64,000 nt of DNA from an uncultured Campylobacter sp. (GTDB lineage: Bacteria; Campylobacterota; Campylobacteria; Campylobacterales; Campylobacteraceae). Location: contig CAUPZQ010000007.1 of assembly GCA_963515915.1 (NCBI GenBank), forward strand, positions 180-64,179, written 5' to 3'. The translations under genes were made by a program, and so were the position numbers. Every line of letters begins with the position of its first letter. The first letter of the stretch is position 1. The notes under the pieces were generated by a model that did not search any database, was not told the origin of the DNA, and was given only the letters and a program-made list of their open reading frames with translations. Below, in pieces: positions 1,298-35,830 of the stretch.

Positions 1298-2085
1298 TGA
1301 GAAAATTTAATCCCAAAGGCGATCAGAGTAAAAAAAATTACTACAAAGACAGATTTTTCGTTCCCGAAGAAACGCCGAAGTTGGAGGTAGCCAAAAGCGA
1401 TTTTAAAGACGATCTGGACGCGCTTGAAGGCATTCAAATTTTAAACTCATACGTGGAATTTAACACTCTCGTGCTCTATGTGGAGCCTGGACAAAATTTA
1501 GCGGCGCTGCGTGCGCTTAAGAGCGCGGGATATGAAATTTTATGCGAGCTAAGCGGCGTGGATTTTACCGAGGCTCGCGGCGGCATCGAGGTTTTTTATC
1601 AGCTTTTGGATATCAAAAGAGCGCGCCGCGCGCGGCTAAAGTGCTTCGTGCCGAATGAGAGCTTTTTGCAAAGCGCTGCGGGTATCTACAAAAGCGCGAA
1701 CTGGGCGGAGCGCGAGCTATACGATATGATGGGCGTTTGGATTGAAAATCATCCAAATTTGGCGCGCCTAATAATGCCCGATGATTGGTTCGGACACCCG
1801 CTTTTGAAGTCCTACCCGCTGCAAGGAGACGAGTTTGCCAAGTGGTACGAGGTGGATAAAATTTTTGGGGTTGGCGCGCGTGAGCGGATCGGCGAAGAAA
1901 ACCGAAATTCCGCATTCGTGGATGAAAAAGATACCTTTAACTTTACGCGGCTCTATCATGAGGGCGGTTACGGCGAGCCGCGGCCGCAAGAGAAAATTTT
2001 ACAAGAATATCAGGAAGAGGGCGGCGTGCGTTTCGTAAAACGCGTTAAACGCGGAATTTACAAGATCATCACAAAGAGAAAATAA
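1297..2085 (+). CDS. nuoC: NADH:quinone oxidoreductase subunit C
   Basis: ATGA overlap with the nuoB stop. The [18 protein letters not shown] and HPLLKSYPL blocks are typical of the 30-kDa subunit. Confidence 0.9.
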
Positions 2086-3311
2086 TGCAAAATCCAAGCA
2101 AGCTAAGACCGTTTTTCGAAAACATCGAGTACGAGCGCGAGGGCGCGAATATGATCTTAAATTTCGGTCCGCAGCACCCAAGCGCGCACGGCCAGCTAAA
2201 GCTAGTGCTGGAGCTTGACGGCGAGCGTATCGTGCGTGCGCGTCCGGGCGTGGGCTATATGCACCGAGGCATCGAAAAGATGGCAGAAAATATGATCTAC
2301 GCGGAATTCGTCCCCGTAACCGACCGCGTCGATTATGTCGCATCGGGCTCGAACAACTACGGCTTTTGCGCCGCGGTCGAGAAGCTCTGCGGCATCGAAG
2401 TGCCGCGCCGCGCGCAGATCATCCGCACGATCTTGCTGGAGCTTAATCGCATTAGCTCGCACCTTCTGTTTTTGGGTACGCACGCGCTTGACATCGGCGC
2501 GATGACGGTATTTCTCTACTGCTTTCGTTCGCGCGAATACATACTCGATCTCATAGAAAAATACTGCGGCGCGCGCCTTACACACAATAATATCAAAATC
2601 GGCGGCGTGTTTTTGGACCTGCCTAACGGCTGGTTAGAAGAGATGTTGAAATTTTGCGACGAATTCCCGAGCGATATTAAAGAATTTGAAGATATGCTTG
2701 ATACCAATAGAATTTGGCTGATGCGAACCGAGGGCGTGGGCGTGATTTCGCACGAAAATGCCCTTAGCTGTGGCTGTAGCGGAGTAACACTGCGCGCTAG
2801 CGGACATGCGTGGGATATCCGCAAAGAGGAGCCCTATCTCATCTACGACGAGCTTGATTTCGAAGTGCCGTATGCGAGCGAGGGCGACTGCTACGCGCGT
2901 TATAAATGCTATATGGCGGAGATGCGCGAGAGCCTTAAAATTTTGCGCCAGTGCGCGAAGCACTACCCGCTGAGCGATCCGCAAATTTTAGCGATCAATC
3001 CCGCTTACGTAAATCCTAGCAAAGAGCAGATTATGGCGCAAAACTACTCGCTGATGCAGCATTTCGTACTGGTTACGCAGGGCTTACGCCCGCCCGTGGG
3101 CGAAATTTACGCCGCGAGCGAGAGCCCTAAGGGCGAGCTTGGATTTTATATCCGCTCGATGGGCGAAAGTCGTCCGTACCGCCTTAAGATCCGCACGCCG
3201 AGCTTTTGGCACTGCGCGGTCTATGAGGAAATTTTACCCGGGCAGTATCTTGCCGACGCCGCGGCGATCATCGGCAGCACTAATATTATCTTAGGCGAGG
3301 TGGATCGATGA
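2085..3311 (+). CDS. nuoD: NADH:quinone oxidoreductase subunit D
   Basis: 408 aa with [21 protein letters not shown] and C-terminal GEVDR, which are NuoD/49-kDa signatures. Confidence 0.93.
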
Positions 3312-3538
3312 AACGCTACGATTTAAGGCATCTGGGCGATAAATTTTTAAACCGCATGGGCGAAATTTTAAAAAATTCCGCTCACGGCGAGACGATGATC
3401 TTTATGTTTGAGATGGGCGATTTCAGCGCGGTTCAAAAAAGCGCAGATCTGGTGGAGGGGCTAAATTCCACGCTTTTAAATTCCATCCGATATAACCAGG
3501 TCGATTGGATGATAGTCGCAAAAAAGGGGAGAATATGA
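3308..3538 (+). CDS. Small protein occupying the nuoE slot (C. jejuni Cj1575c-like); not a NuoE homologue
   Basis: 76-aa ORF whose start overlaps the nuoD stop. It has no 2Fe-2S Cys motif. Its position matches the Campylobacter/Helicobacter-type nuo operon. Confidence 0.65.
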
Positions 3539-4242
3539 AAATTTTAAATTTTGCGCCGCTACTTAGACTGCAAAGTCCGGGGCTTACGGAAGGTTTTAAA
3601 CACGCTAAAATTTTAAGCGTATCGCCGTTGCGAGATCCGTATTTAGAAAGTGAGCTGATTAAATGCGAGATCGGCGCGCAAAACTTCGTGCTGGCGCTAA
3701 TCTGCGCGAGCTTTTGCGACGAGCCATATTTCGCGGAGCTGGATCTGGAGTATCTAAACGGCGAAAGCAACGTGGACGAGGAGGAGATCGGGCAGATTTG
3801 CGAGTTTTTACGGGGGGGCTGCGACGCGCTTTTGATCGACGATGCGCTTATTAAAACTCATCCCGATGCCGAAAATATCAAAGCTTTTCTGTCTCTCATA
3901 GCGGCAGAATTCGGAGTTAAAATTTTAAGCTTACGCGGCGAGCAAGTGGAGCTGGCCGCACCGCATGCGGTAAATTTAAGCCCGCTTAAAGAGCCTATGA
4001 ACTTCGACGGCGCCGTGGTTTTCAAACACGATGCGGATGATCGGCTCGTCGGCGGAGTGTATTTTAGTATGGTCGCAAAGATCAAATACGGCGATCGCGT
4101 CCGCATCAAAACGCCGCATTTAAATTTGGAAAAAGAATTTATCCAAGAGGGGTGGATAAATGGCGCGATCGCGCTTCTAGGCTCGGGCGGACGGGGCTTT
4201 AGCGGCTATAATTTCGAACTAGCCGAAATTTCTAAGGTTTAA
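3535..4242 (+). CDS. Protein occupying the nuoF slot (C. jejuni Cj1574c-like); not a NuoF homologue
   Basis: GGGGAG RBS lies a few nt upstream of the ATG at 3535; the ORF track starts earlier, at 3505. I could not see an FMN/NADH glycine-rich motif or a CxxCxxC cluster. It is followed directly by nuoG. Confidence 0.7.
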   Translation: MKILNFAPLLRLQSPGLTEGFKHAKILSVSPLRDPYLESELIKCEIGAQNFVLALICASFCDEPYFAELDLEYLNGESNVDEEEIGQICEFLRGGCDALLIDDALIKTHPDAENIKAFLSLIAAEFGVKILSLRGEQVELAAPHAVNLSPLKEPMNFDGAVVFKHDADDRLVGGVYFSMVAKIKYGDRVRIKTPHLNLEKEFIQEGWINGAIALLGSGGRGFSGYNFELAEISKV

Positions 4243-4243
4243 A

Positions 4244-6937
4244 ATGGCAAAAATCACGATCGACGGTAAAGCTTGCGAGTGCGACGAGGGCGAGTACATC
4301 CTGCAGGTCGCGCGTCGCTGCGGCGTTTTTATCCCTGCGCTTTGTTATCTAAGCGGAGGTACGCCGACGCTCGCATGCAGACTTTGTATGGTCGAAGCGG
4401 ACGGCAAGCGCGTCTATAGCTGCAACGCCAAGGCCAAGGACGGCATGGTCATCTACAGCCGCAGCCCTGAGATCGACGCTGAGCGCGAAGCGATTGCGCA
4501 GGTTTATTGTATCAACCATCCGATGGCGTGCGGGGTTTGCGATCAAAGCGGCGAGTGTGAGCTTCAAAATTTAGCCCATCTGATGCGCACAAATACCCAA
4601 AGCTACGCTATCCGCGATACGGCGCGCGAGGTACAGGATTGGGGATATTTAAGCTACGATCCTAGCCTTTGTATCGTCTGCGAGCGCTGTATCACCGCCG
4701 CAAAAGACCGCTTGGGCGTAGATGCGTTTAAGCTCGTTCCGCGCGGCGGAGACGCGCCGAGCAAGGAGCAAAAGGACGCGATGCCTAAAGACGCCTACGC
4801 CGTGTGGAACAAACTTCAAAAAAGCCTAATCGCGCGGGTAAATGAAAATGATGATTGCGTAAACTACGGCGAGAGCGCGGCGGTCTGCCCGACGGGGGCT
4901 CTAGTAGAGAGCGCGTTTAAATACGTTTCAAACGCCTGGGAGCTGCGTCAAATCCCCGCTTCCAACCCGCACAGCAGCGACTGCGAACTGCTTTATTACG
5001 AGGTCAAGCGCCGCGGCATAGGCGACCCGCGTGAAAAAATTTATCGCGTTAGCAGCGACATAAATTTTAGCGTTCTGCATGCAGGAGCGCGCTTCGGCTG
5101 GGATTTTTCAAACGAGCGGGCGAGCAAAAACGAAGCGGTTTTTAACCGCATCGTGCGCGGCATCGAGGATGGCGAGATCAAAAATATCAAATTTAATAGC
5201 TTTATCACCAACGAAGAGGCGCGGATTTTAGAGCTTTTGCGGCAAAAATTTAAGCTCGCTCTGATTAACGACGAAGCGCTTGCGTATCAAAAATTCCTGC
5301 GCGAATTTTCTAAGCTTAGCGGCACGAAATTTTATAATGCGGATTCGCAGACGGTTAAAAATAGCGATTTCATCGTAGTTTGCGGCACATTTTTACGCAG
5401 CGACGCGCCAAATCTGGGCTATACGGTAAACAGCGCCTGCAAGCTAAATAAGGCAAGCGGGATCTATTTTCATCCGTTTTGCGACGAGGGCATTAAGGGT
5501 TTTGGCAAAAATTTTATCCATCAGCCGCACGCTGCGGGCTTGGAGGCGCAGATCCTGCTTTGGATCTTGCAAAAGTTCGGGCGCGATCTGCCTGAGTGGC
5601 TGGATGCGAAACTCGCGGCGGAATTTGAAATTTCGCGCGCTGCGGCGAAGGAAAATTTAGACGAGAAATCCGTGGGTTCGCAAAATCCTGAAAATTCTGC
5701 GGAGGCAAATGGCTCTGAGAACGTTGCGAGTGCGAGCGGTGCCGAAAATTCCGCAGGCACAAGCGCCGCAGATTCCATAAAGAATTCCGCGCAGAATACC
5801 GAGAATCCTGCGGAAAGTAAAATTTCAAATTTCGCCCGTGCGCTAGGTCTGGATGAGCAAAAAGTAGATGAAATTTTGGCCAAAAAGGAGCATTTTTCGC
5901 TCATCATCGGCGAGGATTTTATCCGCACGCCAAATAGCGCTATGCTCGCGCGGCTGGCAGGCTTGGTGCAGCGCTATACGCCATTTAAAGTACTAGTGAT
6001 GCCGCCGCGCACTAACAGCCTGGGCGTCGCGCTCATCTGTGAGCTTAGCGCGCAAATGAGCGCGGGCGAGACGCTAGGCTACAACGAAGTGGGCGATATA
6101 AGCTTTGGCGTGCTGGAAGCGGATCTGGATGCGCCTAGTTTGGTGCAGCAGGAGGGCACGTTTACGAATTACGACAAGCGCGTGGTGCCTACTAATGCGG
6201 CGCTTGATTACGGCGGATACGAGCTAAACGACATCGCCTGTGCGCTGGGAGTTTGCGCGGAGCACGCGATCGACTATACACCTAGCTTGGGCGCGGATTT
6301 TGAGCCGATTAAATTTGACGATTTAGAAAATTTCTACGACAACGGCGGCGCAAACCACCGCGGATATGAGTTGCGAAACAAGGAGCTCGCTGCTAGCGAG
6401 GAGGAGTTTGAAATTTCGCTTTCAGCGCCGCTTAGCGCGGGCACAGGCGAAACTTTAATCTATGAGGCAAATCCGCTGCATCACTTCAATAAATTTAGCG
6501 GCGCAAGCAGCGGGCTGGGCGAAGCGGGCGCGCTGTATCTAAGCCCTGGCATCGCCGAAGCTCTGGGCGTGAGCGTGGGCGACGTCGTTAAAATTTACAA
6601 AGCGGACGGCGCGAGCAACGATAAAAAAACTAGCGGCGCGGGCAAAACGAGTGCCGCTAATGATAAAAGCGGTGCCGGTCGTGCAAAAAAAGCAGATCGC
6701 GTTAGCGACGCGCATAAAGCAGACGGCGCCGGTGATGAAAACAGCGAAAACGGCGCGACTGAGCTCGTAAATTTAAACTGCGAAATCGTCGCTAGCGTAA
6801 AGACCGATCCAGGCTTTAGCGGGGTGTATCTGCCGTATTTTGACGAGAAACTAGGCGGCGAGATATTTTTCAAAACCTCACGCTACGCAAGCGTGAAAAT
6901 CGATAAAATTCCAAAGGAGAGGGCAGATGAGCGATAG
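4244..6937 (+). CDS. nuoG: NADH:quinone oxidoreductase subunit G, with two internal low-complexity inserts
   Basis: N-terminal Fe-S Cys clusters are present (CYLSGG..CRLC; HPMACGVCDQSGEC; CIVCERC; AAVCPTGA), followed by a long molybdopterin-oxidoreductase-like body. Operon position fits. The 897 aa include the ENSA-type segment (about 5640-5830) and a DKK/GAG segment (about 6600-6760). Confidence 0.9.
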   Translation: MAKITIDGKACECDEGEYILQVARRCGVFIPALCYLSGGTPTLACRLCMVEADGKRVYSCNAKAKDGMVIYSRSPEIDAEREAIAQVYCINHPMACGVCDQSGECELQNLAHLMRTNTQSYAIRDTAREVQDWGYLSYDPSLCIVCERCITAAKDRLGVDAFKLVPRGGDAPSKEQKDAMPKDAYAVWNKLQKSLIARVNENDDCVNYGESAAVCPTGALVESAFKYVSNAWELRQIPASNPHSSDCELLYYEVKRRGIGDPREKIYRVSSDINFSVLHAGARFGWDFSNERASKNEAVFNRIVRGIEDGEIKNIKFNSFITNEEARILELLRQKFKLALINDEALAYQKFLREFSKLSGTKFYNADSQTVKNSDFIVVCGTFLRSDAPNLGYTVNSACKLNKASGIYFHPFCDEGIKGFGKNFIHQPHAAGLEAQILLWILQKFGRDLPEWLDAKLAAEFEISRAAAKENLDEKSVGSQNPENSAEANGSENVASASGAENSAGTSAADSIKNSAQNTENPAESKISNFARALGLDEQKVDEILAKKEHFSLIIGEDFIRTPNSAMLARLAGLVQRYTPFKVLVMPPRTNSLGVALICELSAQMSAGETLGYNEVGDISFGVLEADLDAPSLVQQEGTFTNYDKRVVPTNAALDYGGYELNDIACALGVCAEHAIDYTPSLGADFEPIKFDDLENFYDNGGANHRGYELRNKELAASEEEFEISLSAPLSAGTGETLIYEANPLHHFNKFSGASSGLGEAGALYLSPGIAEALGVSVGDVVKIYKADGASNDKKTSGAGKTSAANDKSGAGRAKKADRVSDAHKADGAGDENSENGATELVNLNCEIVASVKTDPGFSGVYLPYFDEKLGGEIFFKTSRYASVKIDKIPKERADER

Positions 6938-7922
6938 TGCATTTTATTTCGTAGCTACCGTCTTAAAGGCGCTCGTGATTTTAGCCGTCATCGCGCTGCT
7001 CTCGGGGCTTGCGACCTACGCCGAGCGCAAGGTGCTTGCCTTTATGCAGCGCAGGATCGGGCCCTCTATGGTCGGGCCTGCGGGACTTTTGCAGGTTGGC
7101 GCGGATATGATAAAGCTTTTTACCAAAGAGGACGCGATCCCTGCGCGGGCGAATAAGCTTCTTTTCAAAATCGCGCCGATAATATCGGCTACGGGCGCTT
7201 TCGTGGCGCTTTCGGTAGTGCCGCTGCTGCCGGAGTTTACGATCGGCGGGCGGACGATCCAGCCGATTTTAAGCGATATAAATGTGGGAATTTTATTCCT
7301 GCTCGGAGCTAGCGGCACCTGCGTTTACGGACTGCTGATCGGAGGGCTTGCAAGCTACAATAAATGGGGCACGATAGGCGCGTTTCGCGCGTTTTTGCAG
7401 ATCACCTGCTTTGAGGTGATAAACGGCCTTAGCCTGATCCCTATCGTGATGATCACGGGCTCGCTCTCGCTCATCGACATCGTAAGCGCGCAAAGCGGCG
7501 GCATAGATAAGTGGTTTATCTGGAAAGAGCCCGTTTGCTTCGCGCTCTTTCTCATCGCAGCCTTTGTAGAGTGCAACCGCACGCCGCTGTGCCTTACCGA
7601 AAACGAAACCGAGATCGTAGCGGGCGCGGGTACGGCATATTCGGGAATGCGCTGGGGTATGTTTTTTATCGGCGAATACGCCAATATCATAACCTACTCA
7701 GTCGCTACGACGCTGTTGTTTTTGGGCGGATTCAACGCGTTTTGGTTTATCCCCGGCGGCGTTATGATGGTGTTAAAATCAAGCCTCGTGTTTTTCTGCT
7801 TTTTATGGGCGCGCGCGGCGTGGCCGCATCTGCGCCCCGATCAGCTGATGAGGCTTTGCTGGAAAGTCTGCATGCCGCTAGCTCTTGCTTGCGTGCTAAT
7901 TACAGCGCTAGCGATCGTTTAA
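6927..7922 (+). CDS. nuoH: NADH:quinone oxidoreductase subunit H
   Basis: AERKVLAFMQRRIGP motif, 8 TM-type hydrophobic segments, and operon position. Confidence 0.93.
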   Translation: MSDSAFYFVATVLKALVILAVIALLSGLATYAERKVLAFMQRRIGPSMVGPAGLLQVGADMIKLFTKEDAIPARANKLLFKIAPIISATGAFVALSVVPLLPEFTIGGRTIQPILSDINVGILFLLGASGTCVYGLLIGGLASYNKWGTIGAFRAFLQITCFEVINGLSLIPIVMITGSLSLIDIVSAQSGGIDKWFIWKEPVCFALFLIAAFVECNRTPLCLTENETEIVAGAGTAYSGMRWGMFFIGEYANIITYSVATTLLFLGGFNAFWFIPGGVMMVLKSSLVFFCFLWARAAWPHLRPDQLMRLCWKVCMPLALACVLITALAIV

Positions 7923-7932
7923 GGAGGGTGCG

Positions 7933-9123
7933 ATGGCAAGATACATTGAGATCGATAAACGAGCTCCTATTAGATCCGGCGGCGATAAGCTTCGCAGATT
8001 TCTAGCCCGCACCTTTAGTGGCGAGCTTTTCGTGGGGCTGTGGGTTGTTTTGCGAAATATGTTTAAGCGCGGTGGCTCGCATACGCTTCGGTATCCTATG
8101 GAAAAATTTGTCATGCCGCCTAGATACCGCGGCGTGCACAAGCTTATGCGCCTGCTTGAAAGCGGCAGCGAGCGCTGCATCGGATGCGGCTTGTGCGAGA
8201 AGATCTGCGTGGCAAACTGTATCGCGATGGAGACCAGCCTCGGCAGCGACGGTCGCAAAAAAGTAGATAACTACTCGATAAATTTAGGGCGCTGCGTCTA
8301 TTGCGGGCTTTGCGCGGACGTCTGCCCCGAGATCGCTATCGTGCACGGCTGCGAATATGAGCTTGCGAGCGAGCAGCGCGCGTATTACGGCTTTAAAGAG
8401 GATCTTTTGATTCGCGGCGAAAATTTATGTTTAAACGGCGCGGCGCAGGAGTTTGCAGGCTATGGCAGCCTGGATGAAAACGCAGGCGCGCGGATCAAGG
8501 TGACGCCGAATGCCTATATAAAAAGCGACGCCGCAAGCGATGAGCTAAGCTTAAAGAGCGCGGATTCAAATTTAAAAAGCGCCGCGGAAAGCTCTAAAAA
8601 AGAGGGTGTCGCTAGCGATAAAATTCTATTTTCAGGCGGCGCGGGCTTAAGCGGCGAAATTTCAGCCGAGCGGCAAGACGTGGGGCGGGCAAGCTTAAAG
8701 GAAAGATCCACCACGGACGCCGAAAATTCTAAAGAGAATTCCGCGGACGCTGAAAATTCTACGCTTGATTTGGCGCGAAATTCCAAAGGAAATTCCGCCT
8801 CACAAAATGCAAAAGATTCCGCTACGGATAGTAAAAATTTGGCGGAGAATTCTAAAGAAAATTTCGCTCCGCAGAGCGCCGAAGATTCCGCCGCTCAAAG
8901 TAAAAATTTTAAAGATAATTCTGTTGCGTCGCACGCCGAAAATTCTGTCGGTGAGCTTGCTACGGACGGCGATTCTGCGGAAAATTCTAAAGAAAATTCC
9001 GCCATGCAAGACTCGGGGAGTTCCGCCGCGCGAGGTAAAAAATCTAAGGCAAATTCCAAAAAGAATTCCGCCGCGGACGCTGAGAATTCTACGCAAAGCT
9101 CCGCGCAGGGGGAGGAGCAATGA
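7933..9123 (+). CDS. nuoI: NADH:quinone oxidoreductase subunit I with a long C-terminal low-complexity extension
   Basis: Two ferredoxin motifs (CIGCGLCEKICVANC and CVYCGLCADVCPE) lie within the first ~165 aa. The remaining ~225 aa are Asn/Ser/Ala/Glu/Lys-rich repeats (ENSKENSA, NSADAENST x2). Confidence 0.9.
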   Translation: MARYIEIDKRAPIRSGGDKLRRFLARTFSGELFVGLWVVLRNMFKRGGSHTLRYPMEKFVMPPRYRGVHKLMRLLESGSERCIGCGLCEKICVANCIAMETSLGSDGRKKVDNYSINLGRCVYCGLCADVCPEIAIVHGCEYELASEQRAYYGFKEDLLIRGENLCLNGAAQEFAGYGSLDENAGARIKVTPNAYIKSDAASDELSLKSADSNLKSAAESSKKEGVASDKILFSGGAGLSGEISAERQDVGRASLKERSTTDAENSKENSADAENSTLDLARNSKGNSASQNAKDSATDSKNLAENSKENFAPQSAEDSAAQSKNFKDNSVASHAENSVGELATDGDSAENSKENSAMQDSGSSAARGKKSKANSKKNSAADAENSTQSSAQGEEQ

Positions 9124-9647
9124 TACAAACTCTTGCATTTTATTTTTTCAGCGCGGTTTGCCTGGCGCTTTTCGGTATCAGCGTTTTTAGCAAAAACGTC
9201 CTTTATGCCCTTAGCGCGCTGGCTGGCGGCATGGTCTTTATGAGCGGATTTTTCTTCTTGCTGGATGCGGAGTTTTTAGGCGTGGTGCAGATCATAGTTT
9301 ATACCGGCGCCGTGATCGTGCTTTACGGCTTCGCGCTGATGTTTTTGGGCGCGGATAAAAACGTAAGCGAGCCGAAAAAGGGGGCAAGGCTATTTTTCGC
9401 GCTTAGCGGCGTGATCGCATTTTTGCTCGTGATTATCGTGCTTGGCGCAGTGGTCGCAAACAACGTAGAAACGCTTAAAATTTTAAACACCGACGATACC
9501 GAGGCGCTTGGGATGATTATTTTTACGAAATATCTGGCGATTTTCGAGCTTGCCGCCGTGATGCTGCTCGTGGCGATGATCTGCGCTATCGTGCTTGCGC
9601 ATAAGCAGATGGACGCGAGCCTGAGCTACGAAGAGAGCGAGGGGTAA
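9120..9647 (+). CDS. nuoJ: NADH:quinone oxidoreductase subunit J
   Basis: 175 aa, 5 hydrophobic segments, ATGA overlap with the nuoI stop, and operon position. Confidence 0.88.
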   Translation: MIQTLAFYFFSAVCLALFGISVFSKNVLYALSALAGGMVFMSGFFFLLDAEFLGVVQIIVYTGAVIVLYGFALMFLGADKNVSEPKKGARLFFALSGVIAFLLVIIVLGAVVANNVETLKILNTDDTEALGMIIFTKYLAIFELAAVMLLVAMICAIVLAHKQMDASLSYEESEG

Positions 9648-9648
9648 A

Positions 9649-9972
9649 ATGGCTCTAAATCACTATCTGATTGTCGCTGCGATGATGTTTGGGCTCGGGC
9701 TTGCGGGTATGATGAAGCGAAGAAATTTGATAATGCTCTTTTTTTCGAGCGAAATTTTATTAAACGCCGCAAATTTAGCCCTCGTCGCCGTGGCGAAATT
9801 TTACGACAATATAAACGGCGAAATTTTTGCGCTTTTCATCGTCGCGATCGCCGCGAGCGAGATGGCCGTGGGGCTTGGGCTGCTCATCTTGTGGTATAAG
9901 AAAACGGGCAGCATCGAACTTGACAGCTTCGTAAATTTTAAAAATCCTTCCAAGGACGGGCCGGATGCTTGA
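9649..9972 (+). CDS. nuoK: NADH:quinone oxidoreductase subunit K
   Basis: 107 aa with 3 TM segments and the conserved AASEMAVGL-type block. Operon position fits. Confidence 0.9.
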   Translation: MALNHYLIVAAMMFGLGLAGMMKRRNLIMLFFSSEILLNAANLALVAVAKFYDNINGEIFALFIVAIAASEMAVGLGLLILWYKKTGSIELDSFVNFKNPSKDGPDA

Positions 9973-11812
9973 TACCGTTTTTGTATGGCTCTTAATCGCC
10001 CTTTTCGCACCGCTTGCCTCGGCGATATTCGCAGGCGTTTTCATTCGCGCCAAAGATAAGATGTTTATTGGCGTAGTCTGCTCGGCGCTGGTGATTTTAA
10101 GTACTATCGCGTCGCTTGCTTTGATGGAGCTCGTCTCTGACAACCGCCTAATCAGCGTAAATTTAGCCGATTTCATAAGCACGGGATTTTTGGACGCAAA
10201 ATTTAGCTTTCTCATAGATAGCGTAAGCGCGGTGATGATGGTGGTCGTAGGCATAGTTTCCAGCGTCGTGCATGTGTACTCGATCTACTATATGTGGGAT
10301 GATGAAAACTTCGCTAAATTTTTCAGCTTCCTGGGGCTTTTCGTTTTTTCGATGCTGGTTTTGGTAACGAGCGATAATTTTTTAGGACTTTTCATCGGCT
10401 GGGAGGGGGTCGGACTCTGCTCGTGGCTGCTAATAGGCTTTTGGTATGATAGGAGCAATTACAGCTGGTGCGCCAATGAAGCTTTCATAATGAACCGCAT
10501 CGCAGATCTTGGGATGTTGCTTGGAATTTTTCTGATATATTTAAATTTCGGCTCGTTGCGCTACGAGGTGTTATTTGCGAACGCAGCGAGCTTGGAGCCT
10601 GAAATTTTAACTCTGATCGCCGCACTTTTATTTATCGGTGCGATGGGCAAAAGTGCGCAGTTTCCGTTTCATACCTGGCTAGCCGACGCGATGGCGGGTC
10701 CGACGCCCGTGTCTGCGCTCATTCACGCAGCGACGATGGTTACGGCGGGCGTTTATCTGGTAATTCGCGCAAACGCGATTTTCGCGCTCGCGCCCGAAGT
10801 AAGCGGTTTTATCGTCTGCTTGGGCGCTTTTGTGGCGGTCTTTGCGGCATCGATGGCGCTGGTTCATAACGATCTTAAAAAGATCATCGCCTACTCCACG
10901 CTTTCGCAGCTTGGCTATATGTTTGTAGCCGCGGGGCTCGGGGCGTATTGGATCGCGTTATTTCATCTGGCGACGCATGCGTTTTTCAAAGCGCTTCTAT
11001 TTTTGGGCGCGGGCAACGTAATGCACGCGATGAAAGACGATCTAAATATCCAAAATATGGGCGGATTATATAAGTTTATGCGGCCTACGGCGATTTTGAT
11101 GTGCATAGGCTCGCTCGCGCTTTGCGGATTTTATCCGTTCGCGGGCTTTTTTTCAAAAGATAAAATTTTGGAAGCGGCGTGGAGCGCGGACGCGTATTTT
11201 ATCTGGGCGCTGCTGTTTGCGGGCGCTGCGATGACGACGTTTTACAGCGTGCGTCTGATAATGCTTGTGTTTTTCGGCAAGCAAAATTTTACCCACCATC
11301 CGCACGAGGCGAAAGGCTTCGCCCTTATCGCGATGGGCGTGTTAGCCGTGCCTGCGGTGATCGCTGGCTTTTTCGAGCACGATTTTGCTGAGTTCGTGCT
11401 TAGCATACTGCCCGGATTTAAAATTTCGATCCCGCACGGCGTGGAGGTAATTTTGATCGCCCTAACGCTAGCGATGATAAGCGTGGTGGCGATCGGCACG
11501 ATTTGGACATACGGCAAGGGCAAATTTAGCCAAAATTTAAAGAACTGCAAATTTTATAAAATTTTGATCGCGCAGTATTTTATCCCGCAAATTTACGAGC
11601 GCGTGATCGTGCGCGGATACGCTAAGCTTAGCGAGATCTGCGCTAAATGCGACGGCGCGATCATAGACGCCAGCGTTGATCTGATCGCTCGCATCGCGGT
11701 AAAAGGCGGTGAAGGAGCGGATCGCGCAAGCAATAGCGGAGATTTGAGCGCAAATTTAAGGTGGATGGTTTTGGGATCTTTCATTTTGCTGATTTTGGCG
11801 TTTGCGCTGTGA
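9965..11812 (+). CDS. nuoL: NADH:quinone oxidoreductase subunit L
   Basis: 615 aa antiporter-like subunit with the WEGVGLCSWLLIGFW, GKSAQFPFHTWLADAMAGPTPVSALIHAATMV motifs. Confidence 0.93.
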   Translation: MLDTVFVWLLIALFAPLASAIFAGVFIRAKDKMFIGVVCSALVILSTIASLALMELVSDNRLISVNLADFISTGFLDAKFSFLIDSVSAVMMVVVGIVSSVVHVYSIYYMWDDENFAKFFSFLGLFVFSMLVLVTSDNFLGLFIGWEGVGLCSWLLIGFWYDRSNYSWCANEAFIMNRIADLGMLLGIFLIYLNFGSLRYEVLFANAASLEPEILTLIAALLFIGAMGKSAQFPFHTWLADAMAGPTPVSALIHAATMVTAGVYLVIRANAIFALAPEVSGFIVCLGAFVAVFAASMALVHNDLKKIIAYSTLSQLGYMFVAAGLGAYWIALFHLATHAFFKALLFLGAGNVMHAMKDDLNIQNMGGLYKFMRPTAILMCIGSLALCGFYPFAGFFSKDKILEAAWSADAYFIWALLFAGAAMTTFYSVRLIMLVFFGKQNFTHHPHEAKGFALIAMGVLAVPAVIAGFFEHDFAEFVLSILPGFKISIPHGVEVILIALTLAMISVVAIGTIWTYGKGKFSQNLKNCKFYKILIAQYFIPQIYERVIVRGYAKLSEICAKCDGAIIDASVDLIARIAVKGGEGADRASNSGDLSANLRWMVLGSFILLILAFAL

Positions 11813-11819
11813 GGTGGGC

Positions 11820-13349
11820 ATGGAATACTTTTTAAGTTTGGTTATATTTTTTCCGGCGGTAGCTGCGGTTTTGGGCTTTTTGATCGACGAAGCGAGCATT
11901 AAGACCTACGCCGTTACGATGAGCTTTATAGAGTTCGTGCTTTCGCTCGTTTTGTGGATACTCTACGAGCCGGTGGACGGCATCGCGTTTAGCGTGCTGC
12001 ACCCTTTCATAAGCGAATACGGCATCAACTACTTCATCGGCGTGGACGGAATTTCGCTGTTTTTAGTGATCCTAAGCACGCTGGTTACCTTTTTAGCGCT
12101 ACTTAGCCTAAGTATCAAAGAGCGCGCCAAAAATTTAATCATCTGCATTCTATTTTTAGAGATGACGATGGTGGGCGTTTTCGTGGCGCTGGATGCGATT
12201 TTGTTTTACATTTTTTGGGAACTTTCGCTTATTCCGATGCTCTATATCATCGGCGCGTGGGGCAGCGGCAAGAGAATTTACGCCGCGGTAAAATTTTTCA
12301 TCTACACCTTCCTGGGTTCAATGTTTCTACTCGTAGGACTCGTAGCGATGAGCTATTTCTACCACGAGGCTACGGGCGAGTATAGCTTTAATATCCTAGA
12401 CTGGCAGAGCCTGTCGCTGCCGCTTAGCACGCAAATTCCTCTATTTTTGGCATTTTCGATCGCCTTTGCGATCAAGACGCCTTGCTTTCCTTTTCATACC
12501 TGGCTTCCGTACGCGCACGGGCAGGCTCCTACGATAGGCTCGGTTCTGCTTGCCGCGGTGCTTCTTAAGATGGGCACCTACGGCTTTGTGCGATTTTCGC
12601 TGCCGCTATTTCCCGACGCGAGCGTGTATTTTAGCGGGATGATGTGCGCCGTGGCGATCGTTATGATCATCTATGCAAGCTTCATCGCCTTTGCGCAGAA
12701 GGATATCAAACAGGTTATCGCGTATAGCTCGATCGCGCATATGGGCGTCATAATGCTAGGAATTTTTTCAATGAGCCGTGAAGGAATGAGCGGTGCGGTA
12801 TTTTTGATGATAAGCCACGGTATCGTAAGCGGCGGGCTTTTTATGCTCGTAGGCTTTTTATACGACCGCAGGCACACGAAGCTTTTTGGCGAGTTCGGCG
12901 GGCTTGCGCGGGTGATGCCGCTTTATGCGTTTTGCTTTTGCGTCGTGCTGCTAGGCTCGATAGGACTTCCGCTTACGATCGGCTTCGTGGGAGAATTCCT
13001 AAGCCTTGCGGGGATTTTTAAAATAAGCTTTAGCTACGCGCTTTTGGGCGGGCTCGGTATCATAATGGGCGCGATCTATTCGATGAATCTTTATAAAAAG
13101 ACCTTTTTCGGTGCGCTCGTGCATGATGAGAATAAAAAGCTAAGCGATCTAAACAGAACCGAGCTTTGCTCTATCATCCCGATCTGCGTGCTGGTGGTAG
13201 TGCTCGGCGTCGCGCCAAATTTGATGCTAAAGAGTATCGAGCCCAGCGTAACGCAAAGCCTTGAGCTGATGTTTAATAAAGCCTCGCAAACCGCGACCCG
13301 CGCCTATATGGAAAAAGCAAATTTTAAGGTAAGAAGCGATGCAAAATAA
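11820..13349 (+). CDS. nuoM: NADH:quinone oxidoreductase subunit M
   Basis: A GAGGTG RBS precedes the ATG at 11820; the ORF track uses the TTG at 11802. FPFHTWLPYAHGQAPT and LKMGTYGF are antiporter-like motifs. Confidence 0.9.
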   Translation: MEYFLSLVIFFPAVAAVLGFLIDEASIKTYAVTMSFIEFVLSLVLWILYEPVDGIAFSVLHPFISEYGINYFIGVDGISLFLVILSTLVTFLALLSLSIKERAKNLIICILFLEMTMVGVFVALDAILFYIFWELSLIPMLYIIGAWGSGKRIYAAVKFFIYTFLGSMFLLVGLVAMSYFYHEATGEYSFNILDWQSLSLPLSTQIPLFLAFSIAFAIKTPCFPFHTWLPYAHGQAPTIGSVLLAAVLLKMGTYGFVRFSLPLFPDASVYFSGMMCAVAIVMIIYASFIAFAQKDIKQVIAYSSIAHMGVIMLGIFSMSREGMSGAVFLMISHGIVSGGLFMLVGFLYDRRHTKLFGEFGGLARVMPLYAFCFCVVLLGSIGLPLTIGFVGEFLSLAGIFKISFSYALLGGLGIIMGAIYSMNLYKKTFFGALVHDENKKLSDLNRTELCSIIPICVLVVVLGVAPNLMLKSIEPSVTQSLELMFNKASQTATRAYMEKANFKVRSDAK

Positions 13350-15114
13350 TCTTTTAAATTTAGCCTCGATCGCGCCTATGGCGATACTCGGAGGATTTGC
13401 CCTGCTGATGCTCGCGGTTTCGCTTTTTGCGCGCACGCTATCATATAAATTTTACGCCGTCATCACGATACTAGCTCTAGCTCTTGGCTTCGGGCTTGTT
13501 TTCGGATACAACAGCGGCATACGCGGGCTTTTCGACGTAATGCTAGTGGACGGAATCGCGACGCTATCGATGCTTATTATGCTCGCAGGCTCGATATTTT
13601 TCATCTTTTTGTCTTTGGGTACAAGAAGCGCGCACGAGTACCACACGGCGGAGTTTTTCGTGCTGTTTTTATTCGTGCTCGTGGGCTATGAGTTTATGGT
13701 CGCGAGCGAAAGCTTAATGATGATCCTCGTTGGGCTTGAGACGGGCTCGCTGGCGCTTTATACGCTAATCGCGCTTCACAACCGCGCCAGATCGGTAGAA
13801 GCGGCGCTAAAATACTTCATAATGGGCGCGCTGGGATCGGGCTTTTTCGCATTCGGCGCGGCGATGTTTTTTCTATTGACCGGCTCTATGGAAATTTCAA
13901 ATATCGCGCAGATTGCTAAGAGTTCAAATTTACAAACCAGCGTCCTACTTTTCGCCGCCTGCTCATTTATGATCGTCTCGATAGGATTTAAGCTCTCGCT
14001 GATCCCGTTTCACACCTGGACGCCCGACGTTTACGAGGGCGCGAGCTCGGCAATGGCGGGCTTTATGTCCGTTGTCCCCAAAATCGCGGGCTTTGTCGTG
14101 GCGATCAGGCTGTTTGAAGCGCTACAAAGCATCGGCGTGCAGTGGCTAAACATCGTGCTCTACGCCGTAGCGGTGCTTACGATGAGCTTAGCGAACCTTA
14201 TGGCGCTCGTGCAGCGCGACGTCAAGCGGATGCTTGCTTTCAGCTCCGTTTCGCACGCGGGCTTCGTACTCTGCGCGATCGTGATTGGCTCAACGCAGGC
14301 AAACGCGGCGCTTTTCACCTACTGGATCCTATATGCCGTGGCGAACCTCGGGGCATTTGCCTTCATCTGGTGTGTACGGCAAAGACATGCGCGCTCGTTA
14401 AATTTAAAATTTAAAACCCAAAACCCCGCTTTAAATTTAAACGCAAACGGCGAGAGCTCTATCTCAAACCCAAGGCCCGCTTTTTCGCAAAATCGCGAGC
14501 CGAGCTTTGCCGGCAAGTTAAATTTAGGCGCGAACGGGCAAAATTCAGCCTGCGACGAGTGGAGCGTTAAAGCGAGCGAGCAAAATTCTAAAGCAAGCGG
14601 GCCAAATTTGAAAGCGATCGAGCCCGGCGCGGAAGCGAGCTTTTTCGGCACTAAAACTTGCGAGCCAGGCGCCGAAATTTGCGAGCAAAGCTCTAAGTTC
14701 GCGGCTCGCTTCGAGCATCCGTTTGAGAAATTTGACGGGCTGATCCGCACCCATCCACTTTTTGCGCTATGCGCGGCGATCTTTATGCTCTCGCTTGCGG
14801 GTATCCCGCCGTTTAGCGTGTTTTGGGGCAAGATGTATCTGCTAAGCGCCGCGGTCAATTCGGGCTATTTCGCCCTCGCCGTCATCATGGCGGTAAATAG
14901 CGCGCTCGCGCTGTATTACTATCTGCGCCTCATCGTGCGTATGTTTTTGCACGAGCCGGGGGAGGACGCGGAGCTTGACGGCTCGCTGGGCGCGGTCTCG
15001 GTGCAGATAAAATTCGCCGTCGTGCTAGCTAGCGTGGCATGCGTGCTGGCGCCGTTTTTAGTGAAATTTCTAACCGGAGCAGTAAATAATTTCGTCTTTT
15101 TAAGCGGGTATTAG
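13339..15114 (+). CDS. nuoN: NADH:quinone oxidoreductase subunit N with a ~115-aa internal insert
   Basis: FHTWTPDVYEGASS, SVSHAGF and LSLAGIPPFSVFWGK are NuoN motifs. Residues ~348-462 (NLKFKTQNPALNLNANG...SSKFAARFEH) are non-TM low-complexity sequence interrupting the TM array. Confidence 0.9.
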   Translation: MQNNLLNLASIAPMAILGGFALLMLAVSLFARTLSYKFYAVITILALALGFGLVFGYNSGIRGLFDVMLVDGIATLSMLIMLAGSIFFIFLSLGTRSAHEYHTAEFFVLFLFVLVGYEFMVASESLMMILVGLETGSLALYTLIALHNRARSVEAALKYFIMGALGSGFFAFGAAMFFLLTGSMEISNIAQIAKSSNLQTSVLLFAACSFMIVSIGFKLSLIPFHTWTPDVYEGASSAMAGFMSVVPKIAGFVVAIRLFEALQSIGVQWLNIVLYAVAVLTMSLANLMALVQRDVKRMLAFSSVSHAGFVLCAIVIGSTQANAALFTYWILYAVANLGAFAFIWCVRQRHARSLNLKFKTQNPALNLNANGESSISNPRPAFSQNREPSFAGKLNLGANGQNSACDEWSVKASEQNSKASGPNLKAIEPGAEASFFGTKTCEPGAEICEQSSKFAARFEHPFEKFDGLIRTHPLFALCAAIFMLSLAGIPPFSVFWGKMYLLSAAVNSGYFALAVIMAVNSALALYYYLRLIVRMFLHEPGEDAELDGSLGAVSVQIKFAVVLASVACVLAPFLVKFLTGAVNNFVFLSGY

Positions 15115-15134: not shown

Positions 15135-16928
15135 ATGGAAAACTATGAAAGACTATTTAATGATTTGAAATCAAAAGGGATGATAATAGAAAATATCAAT
15201 TCTATTCATATTAGAAATTATATAAAAAAGGAAGATGAAAGATATATTATTAAGGATTTTAGAAATTCTCCCAGGATAAATGATGCGTTAGACCTGCCTA
15301 AGATTATTTGCGAGCTTGAGGTAGAATTCCAAAATTGTGATTTTTATAGTCTAAATATAACGGGAGTTATAGGAGAAAAAATAAGTTTTATTGGTTGTAA
15401 ATTTAAAGAAGCAATCTCATTTGAAAATTCTAAATTTAAAAAATACGTTTCGTTTGAGAAATCCGAATTTAACAGCATTGTTGACTTTTCAAATTGCATA
15501 TTTGAAAAACTGGTAAATTTTGATAACTCTGACGAGAAAGAACATACAAAACCAATAAATTTTTCTAATGTTATATTCCAAGATAACGCTTATTTTAATA
15601 ATATCGTATTTAATAATTATGCAGACTTCCATGGAGCCATATTTAAAAAAGTAGCATCTTTTTACGGCGTGCGATTTAAGGACTTTGTAAATTTTTCCGC
15701 CACTATATTTGAAGGAGATTTAAATTTAGTAAATTCTAAACTGGACTTTGAATATGAAGATTTGAAGCAAGCTATAATCAAAGCTGCAAAAAGCAGCTCT
15801 ATTAAAGAGACGGCGAATGATTTCCGCGATAGTTTTAGAGTTTTAAAAAATACAGCGACTAAAACGGGGAATCATCTTGATGCTATAAGATACTGCGTTT
15901 CCGAATTATATTGTAAGGAAATAGAGCTAGAAGACGATCTTAAAAATAAAGAATCTAAAGATCCGGCAAGAAAGAATATTAAAAATTTTATAGATTTAAT
16001 GCTATTAAAACTTTATCGTGTTACGAGCGACCATCATTCAAATCTCGTAAAGATCATTAATTTTGCCGCCACTGTTGTAGTGTTTTATGGGATCTTAAAT
16101 TGGTTTTTCCCTCGTTTGTATGTATGCTTAGAAGAAGGGAAGCGCGGCTTACAAAATTGGTTATTTTTCTTTGTTTTTATCTTTATAGCAGTTATGTTTG
16201 CAATTTGGATTATAAGGGCGGTCGCTCAAAGGTGGAAAGACCTAGTATTTGTCTTAATACTTCCAATTGCCCTTATTGCCTTGCTTCAGTTTTCTTTTCG
16301 GGATTCATTTATGTCGGAAGCTAATGATATTCTTAATACTACGGGTGCATTTGTTCTTATATTTTTATCCCTTATTTGCGGGTATACCTATACCTCTGAA
16401 AAGATGGGATACAAAATCTCTTACGTTTTTCATATTTCTATTTATGTTTGCTTTATAATGTTTTTATTCGTTAAGCCAGAGCTTTTTAATCCATTTAATG
16501 GGATATTTCAAAGTACAAAAATAGAGCCTAATAAATTTAGAAATTATGTATTAGAAAACAATGAAAGTGCACCAAAGGAAATTTTGAATTTAATAAAGAT
16601 TAATAGCGGCAAAAGTGTGGATTATGATATTAAACTAATTGCGAATCATCGCCTTGCAATTCTAAAGCAAATAGACAGCGAAAATAACCAATCAAAACCC
16701 GAAGGAAGATTAAATGTATTCAGTTATTTTTGTCCTTCCGCATATTTAGAAGAATCTACGAATGATAAAAAATATGTGCAAATTTATAACATTCTTTTGG
16801 ATGATGAAATTTCGGAAATATCTAAAAAAATATCAAAAGCGGGCTATTTGGTTTATGCTTTTATCATGCTTTTGATTATTTACTCTCTTACAAAAACGGC
16901 GCGTCGTAACTCCATCGTACCTAGTTAA
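15135..16928 (+). CDS. Pentapeptide-repeat-like N-terminal domain fused to a multi-pass membrane domain; function unknown; likely horizontally acquired
   Basis: 597-aa ORF with an AAGAGGA RBS, 20 nt after the nuoN stop. Residues ~65-205 form serial 5-residue-period F/L/I repeats (CDFYSLNITG..ISFIGCKFKEAISFENSKFKKYVSFEKSEFNSIVDFSNCIFEKLVNF..). About 5 TM segments lie at aa ~305-460, plus a C-terminal TM. G+C hand counts: 10/60 at 15181-15240 and 21/60 at 16081-16140, against 41/60 in nuoN at 14941-15000. Confidence 0.75.
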   Translation: MENYERLFNDLKSKGMIIENINSIHIRNYIKKEDERYIIKDFRNSPRINDALDLPKIICELEVEFQNCDFYSLNITGVIGEKISFIGCKFKEAISFENSKFKKYVSFEKSEFNSIVDFSNCIFEKLVNFDNSDEKEHTKPINFSNVIFQDNAYFNNIVFNNYADFHGAIFKKVASFYGVRFKDFVNFSATIFEGDLNLVNSKLDFEYEDLKQAIIKAAKSSSIKETANDFRDSFRVLKNTATKTGNHLDAIRYCVSELYCKEIELEDDLKNKESKDPARKNIKNFIDLMLLKLYRVTSDHHSNLVKIINFAATVVVFYGILNWFFPRLYVCLEEGKRGLQNWLFFFVFIFIAVMFAIWIIRAVAQRWKDLVFVLILPIALIALLQFSFRDSFMSEANDILNTTGAFVLIFLSLICGYTYTSEKMGYKISYVFHISIYVCFIMFLFVKPELFNPFNGIFQSTKIEPNKFRNYVLENNESAPKEILNLIKINSGKSVDYDIKLIANHRLAILKQIDSENNQSKPEGRLNVFSYFCPSAYLEESTNDKKYVQIYNILLDDEISEISKKISKAGYLVYAFIMLLIIYSLTKTARRNSIVPS

Positions 16929-35216: not shown

Positions 35217-35239
35217 ATACCGCTCTTTTAGGCGCGCTG

Positions 35240-35830
35240 CTATTCGCCGCTATTGATGACGGTGGAATTTAGCCGCTTTATAAGCTCGTCAAAGCCCAAG
35301 CTTTGCGTTACGTCGCCTAGCTGCGAGCGGTAGGTTTGAATTAGGCTAACGCCCACGATATCGACGTCGTAGATACGCCAATCAGAGCCGTTAGGATAAA
35401 ATTTAAAATCGATGTCGTAGTTTTTCTGTTCGCCGATGACCTGCGTTTTTAGCACGCGGCGCTTATCGCTCGGGCTTTGTTTGCTTAGCACCTTCATATC
35501 CTGATCGGTATAAAGCGAAAGCTTTTCGATAAACGAGCGCTTTAGATGCGCCTCGAAGGCTTTATTAAATTCCGCGATCTGTGCGGGGCTAAGGCTAGCG
35601 TAATGCTTGGCAAGGGAGAGCTTTGCCATCATCTTGTAATCGAAGTAGCCGTCAAAAAGCGCAAAGATTTTCGCGGGCTTTGCGTCTTTGGGCGCGCTGC
35701 TTCGCATAATATTTACGGCCTCGGCGACCTTCTGGCTCATCACCGGCTCGATATCCGCATCGCTAATAGCGTGCGCCGAAATCAAAAGCGCTCCGCAAAG
35801 CGCTAGAACTTTTAAAATTTTCATTTTCAT
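35240..35830 (-). CDS. mlaC: MlaC/Ttg2D-family periplasmic phospholipid-binding protein
   Basis: 196 aa with a signal peptide. Family-typical FDGYFDYKMMAKLSLAKHY and WRIYDVDIVGVSLIQTYRSQ blocks. Confidence 0.78.
   Translation of the reverse strand: MKMKILKVLALCGALLISAHAISDADIEPVMSQKVAEAVNIMRSSAPKDAKPAKIFALFDGYFDYKMMAKLSLAKHYASLSPAQIAEFNKAFEAHLKRSFIEKLSLYTDQDMKVLSKQSPSDKRRVLKTQVIGEQKNYDIDFKFYPNGSDWRIYDVDIVGVSLIQTYRSQLGDVTQSLGFDELIKRLNSTVINSGE

Follow-up and report, generated by a model that had tools for sequence, protein, structure and literature searches.

In a 64,000-nucleotide stretch of DNA from an uncultured Campylobacter sp. (contig CAUPZQ010000007.1 of assembly GCA_963515915.1, hereafter the window), the gene for NuoI, an Fe-S subunit of the peripheral arm of respiratory complex I, encodes 195 conserved residues followed by a lineage-specific, low-complexity tail of 201 residues (aa 196-396; DNA 8518-9120). 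The gene (nuoI, 7933-9123, + strand; 396 amino acids and a stop codon) is present in the list of open reading frames (ORFs) and was identified with the NCBIfam model NF004542. We favour, with some reserve, the explanation that the tail is a disordered appendage generated by repeat slippage, tolerated on the protein surface and drifting near neutrality, with its reading frame kept open for the downstream genes nuoJ-N. It looks like a fast-evolving, largely dispensable appendage and not a new functional domain, and it is an extreme example of a low-complexity extension on a conserved protein. To our knowledge, tails of such length are uncommon on the small Fe-S subunits of bacterial respiratory chains, and searches of the literature turned up neither an account of a NuoI tail nor one of low-complexity inserts in C. 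gracilis, the species complex to which the window sequence belongs.

The conserved part of the protein is readily delimited. NF004542, an equivalog model for Campylobacterota-type NuoI, matched the window protein with 292.5 bits (cutoff 248), aligning aa 3-197 with model positions 7-197 of 203. The two 4Fe-4S cluster motifs (clusters N6a/N6b; CxxCxxCxxxC; 8176-8328, +) are covered by Pfam Fer4_7/Fer4 at aa 81-133, and their cysteines (C82/C85/C88/C92 and C121/C124/C127/C131, with P132 after the second motif) are invariant in 88 relatives. NuoI/TYKY chains in the PDB matched at E = 2e-30, with an alignment reaching only to around aa 164, and both these matches and TIGR01971 place the end of the universal NuoI core at around aa 160-165. 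Beyond it lies a conserved C-terminal extension specific to Campylobacterota (aa 166-195, ending ...EFAGYGSLDENAGARIKVTPNAY; 8428-8517, +), which is evident from NF004542 and from conservation among the 88 sequences, where E173, F174, G176, G178, L180, K189, T191, P192 and Y195 are invariant or nearly so. NF004542 and all relatives show conservation through K.TP.AY (aa 189-195), which in the window reads ...TPNAY, and the NuoI of tail-less relatives stops exactly at TPLAY. Judged by this conservation, the segment aa 166-195 belongs to conserved NuoI and not to the variable tail. The initial annotation had placed the end of the core near aa 165-170, which holds for the universal core but not for the Campylobacterota-type protein; the tail of around 225 residues from 8440 that it described is accordingly shortened to 201 residues from 8518.

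Serine (20%), alanine (16%), lysine (10%), glutamate (9%), asparagine (9%) and aspartate (8%) together make up 72% of the tail, and the hydrophobic fraction is 0.10 over its whole length and 0.07 in its repeat part. With 25 K+R against 35 D+E, a net charge of -10, the tail is a mildly acidic polyampholyte, which tempers its earlier description as a long acidic tail. Part 1 (aa 196-258, 63 residues, IKSDAASDE...DKILFSGGAGLSGEISAERQDVGRASLKER; 8518-8706, +) is hydrophilic and non-repetitive. Part 2 (aa 259-391; 8707-9105, +) was resolved by repeat, pattern and autocorrelation searches into around six degenerate units of 18-23 residues, each opening with xxxNSKxNSA and starting at about 8716, 8770, 8839, 8908, 8974 and 9043. 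A full unit comprises 23 residues (69 nt) and is assembled from 12-nt xNS[K/A] sub-units with the pattern (R)A(R)AATTCYNNN (RARAATTCYNNN). The repeat search retrieved a 26-nt family with nine copies and an 85-nt family with three copies, 69 and 135 nt apart, and autocorrelation within the tail peaked at lags of 69, 24, 57 and 12. The 23-mer GAAAATTCTAAAGA(G/A)AATTCCGC, already noted at 8722 and 8980, has a third copy at 8845, giving three matches (≤3 mismatches) as compared with none in 100 shuffles. The other repeat noted, GAATTCCGC(C)GCGGACGCTGA(A/G)AATTCTACGC, does occur at both 8736 and 9063, but the encoded peptides are NSADAENST and NSAADAENST and not NSADAENST twice. Tandem Repeats Finder detected no tandem array in the tail because the copies are less than ~70% alike. 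There was no Pfam match beyond aa 152 of NuoI, and a search with the tail alone returned NuoI proteins only. The tail therefore qualifies as low-complexity sequence by its biased composition, scarcity of hydrophobic residues, internal repeats and lack of a domain match; the description of a repeat-built low-complexity extension is borne out by its repeats and composition and by a reading frame kept across the clade.

Words containing AAATTT are abundant throughout the window. The 8-mers that contain it are the commonest, with AAATTTTA/TAAAATTT occurring 189 times in 64 kb at 47% G+C, and GAAAATTC was counted 13 times on the + strand, five of them in the tail, where base composition predicts ~1.2. 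Such a bias in word usage may contribute to the slippage-prone units of the tail.

We next draw on relatives obtained by scanning one genome per species (GTDB species level), which provided 52 loci of the C. gracilis complex, or 53 sequences together with the window. The flanks of these loci diverge by 3-5%, and one metagenome-assembled genome carries the label C. gracilis. All 52 independent assemblies read through the tail in frame. More than 120 further database proteins of 364-419 residues are 77-100% identical to the window NuoI, and a 9.8-kb metagenome contig spans the nuoI region with indels of only +3, +3 and +15 nt.

The frame ends at a fixed point. The conserved C-terminal QGEEQ and the stop codon (9106-9123, +) are encoded by bases that also hold the ribosome-binding site of nuoJ and an ATGA overlap: the Shine-Dalgarno (SD) sequence GGAGG lies at 9111-9115, and start and stop overlap at 9120-9123, the nuoJ ATG beginning at 9120 and the nuoI TGA occupying 9121-9123. 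The ending ...STQSSAQGEEQ with an overlapping nuoJ start, as first described, is thus confirmed in the sequence. All 52 clade loci end in Q(G/E/R)(E/D)EQ and show the same 4-nt overlap of the nuoJ start with the end of nuoI; the NuoI of a sister species ends in GGDE with GGAGGAGACGAATGA. Across Campylobacterota there are two types of junction. Tail-less nuoI genes (L058, L062, L066, L073) end in TPLAY and are separated from nuoJ by a spacer of 7-10 nt, while most tail-bearing ones (L053, L056, L057, L059, L060, L063, L077) overlap nuoJ by 4-16 nt and encode its SD sequence; exceptions are L080 (229 aa), which lacks the overlap, and L055, where a nuoJ start was not found. The recurrent ...KGE or GEE endings of NuoI arise because the last codons encode the nuoJ SD sequence.

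Comparison of NuoI lengths, a check proposed at the outset, showed the window protein to be far longer than that of other Campylobacter, a length that is nevertheless shared across the C. gracilis complex (302-419 aa). Within the complex there is a short allele of 302-305 aa (14 of the 53 sequences) and a range of long alleles of 358-419 aa, and other databases contain intermediates of 310-357 aa. In the sister species (L051/P0121), which is 86% identical over the first 200 residues, NuoI has 337 aa and a tail of 142 aa that matches the window tail only in short pieces and at E = 0.003. Named Campylobacter (geochelonis, blaseri, coli, upsaliensis, lari, vulpis, molothri and others) have a NuoI of 188-221 aa, the overall range in other Campylobacter being 188-238 aa, and in Sulfurospirillum and Hydrogenimonas the protein ends in TPLAY at ~190 aa. 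According to PMC10770169, complex I is missing altogether from C. rectus, C. showae and C. mucosalis. The tail is therefore a feature of only the C. gracilis complex and a single sister species, and no equivalent of conserved sequence extends across the order.

Tails as such are more widespread. After the same motif, Helicobacter gastrofelis/NHP (NuoI of 284 aa, KE-rich) and H. heilmannii (241 aa) have low-complexity tails of unrelated sequence, further Campylobacterota NuoI clusters of 300, 266 and 230 aa have unrelated tails after TP.AY, and tails of 10-110 aa, likewise unrelated, occur at this position in several Helicobacter, Wolinella and other Campylobacterota. Like the window tail, these start directly after K.TP.AY and are hydrophilic and of low complexity, and most overlap nuoJ and encode its SD sequence. 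Unlike it, those compared (H. gastrofelis/NHP, 284; H. heilmannii, 241; C. upsaliensis, 216; C. coli, 217-221; Wolinella, at least 236 aa in total) are much shorter and of unrelated sequence (KE-rich, ESSADS repeats and others). Among the Campylobacterota NuoI compared, the window-type tail exceeds all others in length and is alone in being built of NS[K/A] units. The C-terminus of NuoI is, as these sequences indicate, a recurrent site of accretion in Campylobacterota, and the window tail, considered unusual when first noticed, is unusual in length but not in kind.

The pattern of variation within the complex bears directly on how the tail evolves. The 53 sequences contain 23 distinct gap blocks, all of them in the tail, all in frame and none in the core, and all large indels of the relatives fall in part 2. 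The short allele appears to result from deletion between two ...NSTLDSARNSKENSASQSAEDSA copies; in the window, the distal copy survives only in part, as the 8736/9063 repeat. The star-like tree of the flanks does not separate short from long alleles, which occur interspersed on it; the polymorphism is thus segregating or recurrent. Natural alleles around 100 residues apart segregate in a single species complex, and the repeat region, being length-polymorphic, could be used for strain typing. The ratio of non-synonymous to synonymous substitution rates (dN/dS) was 0.059 for the core (aa 1-195; mean pairwise amino acid identity 97%), 0.37 for part 1 (aa 196-258; 87%) and 0.41 for part 2 with the C-terminal residues (aa 259-396; 76%). 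Tail variants to hydrophobic residues occurred at the mutational expectation (0.17 versus 0.16, and 0.12 versus 0.12), and part 1 could barely be aligned to the sister species. No stop variant was seen among 297 single-nucleotide variants in the tail, where the mutational spectrum predicts ~10. Strong selection was detected in the tail only against stop codons.

The tail had been described as disordered, and structure prediction gave the same picture. We used an AlphaFold2 monomer model with the 88-sequence alignment, as a shallow run (14 near-identical sequences) was poor even for the core, with a mean predicted local distance difference test score (pLDDT) of 32. The N-terminal helices and the ferredoxin core reached a pLDDT of 62-84. 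From around residue 187 onwards, nearly all residues scored below 50, a few isolated residues and short runs being at or just above 50, and no secondary structure was predicted past residue 187; being a monomer model, this is still compatible with folding upon binding. The tail is probably floppy.

In the explanation that we favour, the tail would have arisen in an ancestor shared by the C. gracilis complex and the sister species and grown by slippage or unequal recombination of the 12-nt and 69-nt units, the point of insertion lying between ...TPNAY and the last codons, which double as the nuoJ ribosome-binding site. The C-terminus of NuoI is expected at the peripheral arm's cytoplasmic face, from where the tail would hang into the cytoplasm and leave electron transfer undisturbed, free to drift almost without constraint in sequence and length. 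The frame, by contrast, would have to stay open as far as the ATGA, as a stop codon or frameshift would uncouple the translation of nuoJ and leave untranslated mRNA that would be exposed to polarity on nuoJ-N. Such polarity or translational coupling would provide the reason for the open frame, and the tail itself would have no specific function. Selection against stop codons alone fits a 'translated spacer' held open for downstream operon genes. The tail has the properties of slippage-made disordered regions in general, namely biased composition, degenerate repeats, in-frame length polymorphism, relaxed dN/dS and lack of a fold, and differs from that class in that its frame is apparently protected by the downstream genes of an operon. 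It would thus provide a clear bacterial case of a conserved respiratory subunit doubled in length by repeat slippage.

Several observations weigh against this explanation. Synonymous variants are moderately enriched in the tail (0.37-0.39 versus 0.25 expected), which together with a dN/dS of ~0.4, below 1, shows that the peptide is under some purifying selection. Every member of the clade has kept at least part of the tail, the shortest having 107 aa, and part 1 keeps its 87% identity within the clade. nuoJ has its own SD sequence, and inserts of the same flavour in several complex I subunits, described below, could mean co-selection. Judged from the reading frame, the mature enzyme would carry the tail unclipped. 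Evidence at the RNA level is thin: parts of the tail are reached by only a handful of Logan contigs of low depth (X4, up to 8743; X14, at 8819-8945 and 9079-9229; X27, at 8472-8619), whose source runs are guessed to be RNA; they are compatible with transcription of the tail and silent on translation.

These points lead to the rival that survives best, which we consider possible but rather doubtful: a selected, functional disordered region whose role depends on composition and not on exact sequence. It could work as an entropic bristle or spacer, or be a flexible arm that helps to assemble or stabilize a peripheral arm without NuoE and NuoF or recruits its electron donor. In its favour, dN/dS stays below 1, composition is steady across the 53 variants, with a hydrophobic fraction of 0.09-0.15 and a net charge of -2 to -16, and the tail, never lost in the clade, is kept with similar composition in the sister species. 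Similar inserts are found in NuoG and NuoN of the same enzyme, and E. coli staples its peripheral arm with C-terminal extensions of NuoI, NuoB and NuoF (PMC8357420). However, 14 of the 53 natural genomes, at scattered places in the tree, lack around 100 residues, half of the tail; hydrophobic replacements show no depletion against the mutational expectation, the tail is nearly unalignable to that of the sister species, and the same kind of insert is found in an unrelated MMPL transporter. The retention of part 1 can be explained by the absence of deletion-mediating repeats there.

The E. coli precedent is instructive in this respect. Residues 139-180 of E. coli NuoI form an ordered 42-residue C-terminal extension that runs along the peripheral arm's surface (Kolata & Efremov 2021, PMC8357420), is conserved in its clade and buries large interfaces with NuoG, NuoB, NuoF, NuoD and NuoE (PMC8357420). 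The window tail is likewise lineage-specific and C-terminal on the same subunit, but at 201 residues it is repetitive, length-polymorphic, fast-evolving and without predicted order. We rejected the tail as a conserved staple of the E. coli type on account of its dN/dS of 0.37-0.41, its 23 indel blocks, the deletion of half of it in 14 of 53 sequences and its poor alignment to the sister species. By analogy, the counterpart of the E. coli staple is likely the conserved segment aa 166-195. Bacterial N-glycosylation was also considered for the NS motif and rejected, as the motif does not match the sequon (D/E-x-N-x-S/T) and NuoI is cytoplasmic.

A wider version of the functional reading, which we regard as unlikely, takes the S/A/N/E/K-rich inserts of NuoG, NuoI and NuoN as a co-selected disordered 'corona' on a complex I without NuoE and NuoF and not as separate products of neutral slippage. 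NuoG has 897 residues as compared with 819 positions in its model and contains two hydrophilic inserts rich in S/A/N/E/K/G (5615-5845 and 6572-6772, +; ...PENSAEANGSENVASASGAENSAGTSAADSIKNSAQNTENPAESK... and ...KADGASNDKKTSGAGKTSAANDKSGAGRAKKADRVSDAHKADGAGDENSENG...), which vary in length within the clade and are not present in outgroups; the sister species (L051) has a different insert of ~130 residues. NuoN has 591 residues against 496 model positions, and its match is split (aa 4-352 and 462-586) around a hydrophilic loop of ~110 residues (...NLKFKTQNPALNLNANGESSISNPRPAFSQNREPSF...; ~14383-14718, +) outside the model coverage. If true, this structure could serve to tether the electron donor or to concentrate it, to control assembly, or to keep the enzymes spaced within the membrane; its largest component would be the NuoI tail, and disordered appendages would have an unrecognised role on flavodoxin-type complex I. 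An ENSA-type insert of ~100 residues (SASSADSASESENSASGSANSKNGENSNPAERNFAANSTRQNS..., 33393-33716) is, however, also present in an MMPL-family transporter (926 aa; ORF 32472-35249, - strand), which shows that such inserts are not confined to complex I. Taken with those of NuoG and NuoN, it makes the NuoI tail one case of a lineage-wide tendency and not a peculiarity of NuoI.

That the tail is an artefact, with a sequencing or assembly error hiding a stop codon near aa 170-200 or an untranslated nuoI-nuoJ spacer mistaken for coding sequence, is effectively refuted: repeats are hard to assemble, and in one record (P0292, 229 aa, on a 1.7-kb contig) the tail is preceded by a seemingly out-of-frame NuoI core without a Fer4 domain, but 52 assemblies and >120 database proteins hold one frame up to a shared C-terminus in spite of 23 different indels, no stop variants were seen against ~10 expected, and by our own estimate 200 random codons would stay open with a chance of only (1-0.045)^200, ~1e-4. 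Likewise, the 52 assemblies and the spanning metagenome contig leave no place for a stop near aa ~170 concealed by sequencing error. The long nuoI ORF of C. gracilis-type genomes is thus correctly annotated and should be neither 'repaired' nor flagged as a fusion or frameshift. P0292 is probably a frameshifted or misassembled record, and P0317 (284 aa), a NuoI with an internal duplication of the cluster-motif segment, is probably an assembly artefact.

Equally improbable is an overlapping gene in the other frames of the tail. The three ORFs listed initially all exist, one in an alternative frame (8765-9190, +, 141 codons) and two antisense (8800-9138, -, 112 codons; 8895-9128, -, 77 codons), and the open lengths of 140 codons in the +1 frame and 106 in antisense were reached by fractions of only 0.006 and 0.007 of codon shuffles. 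Codon shuffling, however, removes the repeat context, in which a frame is either open throughout or filled with stops. The open length follows the length of the repeats, the +1 frame is interrupted in seven relatives (L005, L006, L012, L025, L026, L027, L054), and antisense open lengths vary among relatives. Synonymous divergence (dS) is not depressed in the tail (0.36 versus 0.24 in the core), and the alternative frames of the NuoI core are similarly open (86-112 codons, with antisense stretches of 93 and 112). As had been supposed from the start, the open frames are, on this sequence comparison, a by-product of the repeats and not genes. Nor would the repeats form a phase-variable contingency switch, since their periods (12, 24, 57 and 69 nt) are all multiples of 3 and 52 of 52 relatives are in frame, so that no on/off switching results.

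The operon surrounding nuoI is of the Campylobacterota type, with nuoI between nuoH and nuoJ and all genes on the + strand. NCBIfam models identified nuoA (417-806), nuoB (788-1297), nuoC (1297-2085), nuoD (2085-3311), nuoG (4244-6937), nuoJ (9120-9647; NF005167, 222.6 bits, cutoff 137) and nuoN (13339-15114). From position and size only, nuoH was assigned to 6927-7922 and nuoK, nuoL and nuoM to 9649-13349. The place of nuoE and nuoF between nuoD and nuoG is occupied by an ORF matching PF16514 ('putative NADH-UOR chain E'; 3308-3538; Pfam, E = 9e-33) and by another without a Pfam or NCBIfam match (3535-4242); family searches of the operon ORFs found no NuoF-like ORF there. According to later papers citing the original work (Weerakoon & Olson 2008 via PMC3144371 and PMC10770169), the flavodoxin-dependent complex I is encoded by nuoA-D, Cj1575c/Cj1574c-type genes and nuoG-N, and literature cited in PMC3144371 gives flavodoxin, and not NADH, as the donor in C. 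jejuni. The window operon has the same layout, known here from its genes, and differs from the C. jejuni type in its inserts: the latter has a NuoI of 213 aa without a long tail and lacks the inserts in NuoG and NuoN. The junctions of ORFs 3308-3538 and 3535-4242 are ATGA-type overlaps, like that of nuoI and nuoJ. A pentapeptide-repeat protein of 597 aa (PF13576), without an NCBIfam match, is encoded directly downstream of nuoN at 15135-16928 (+).

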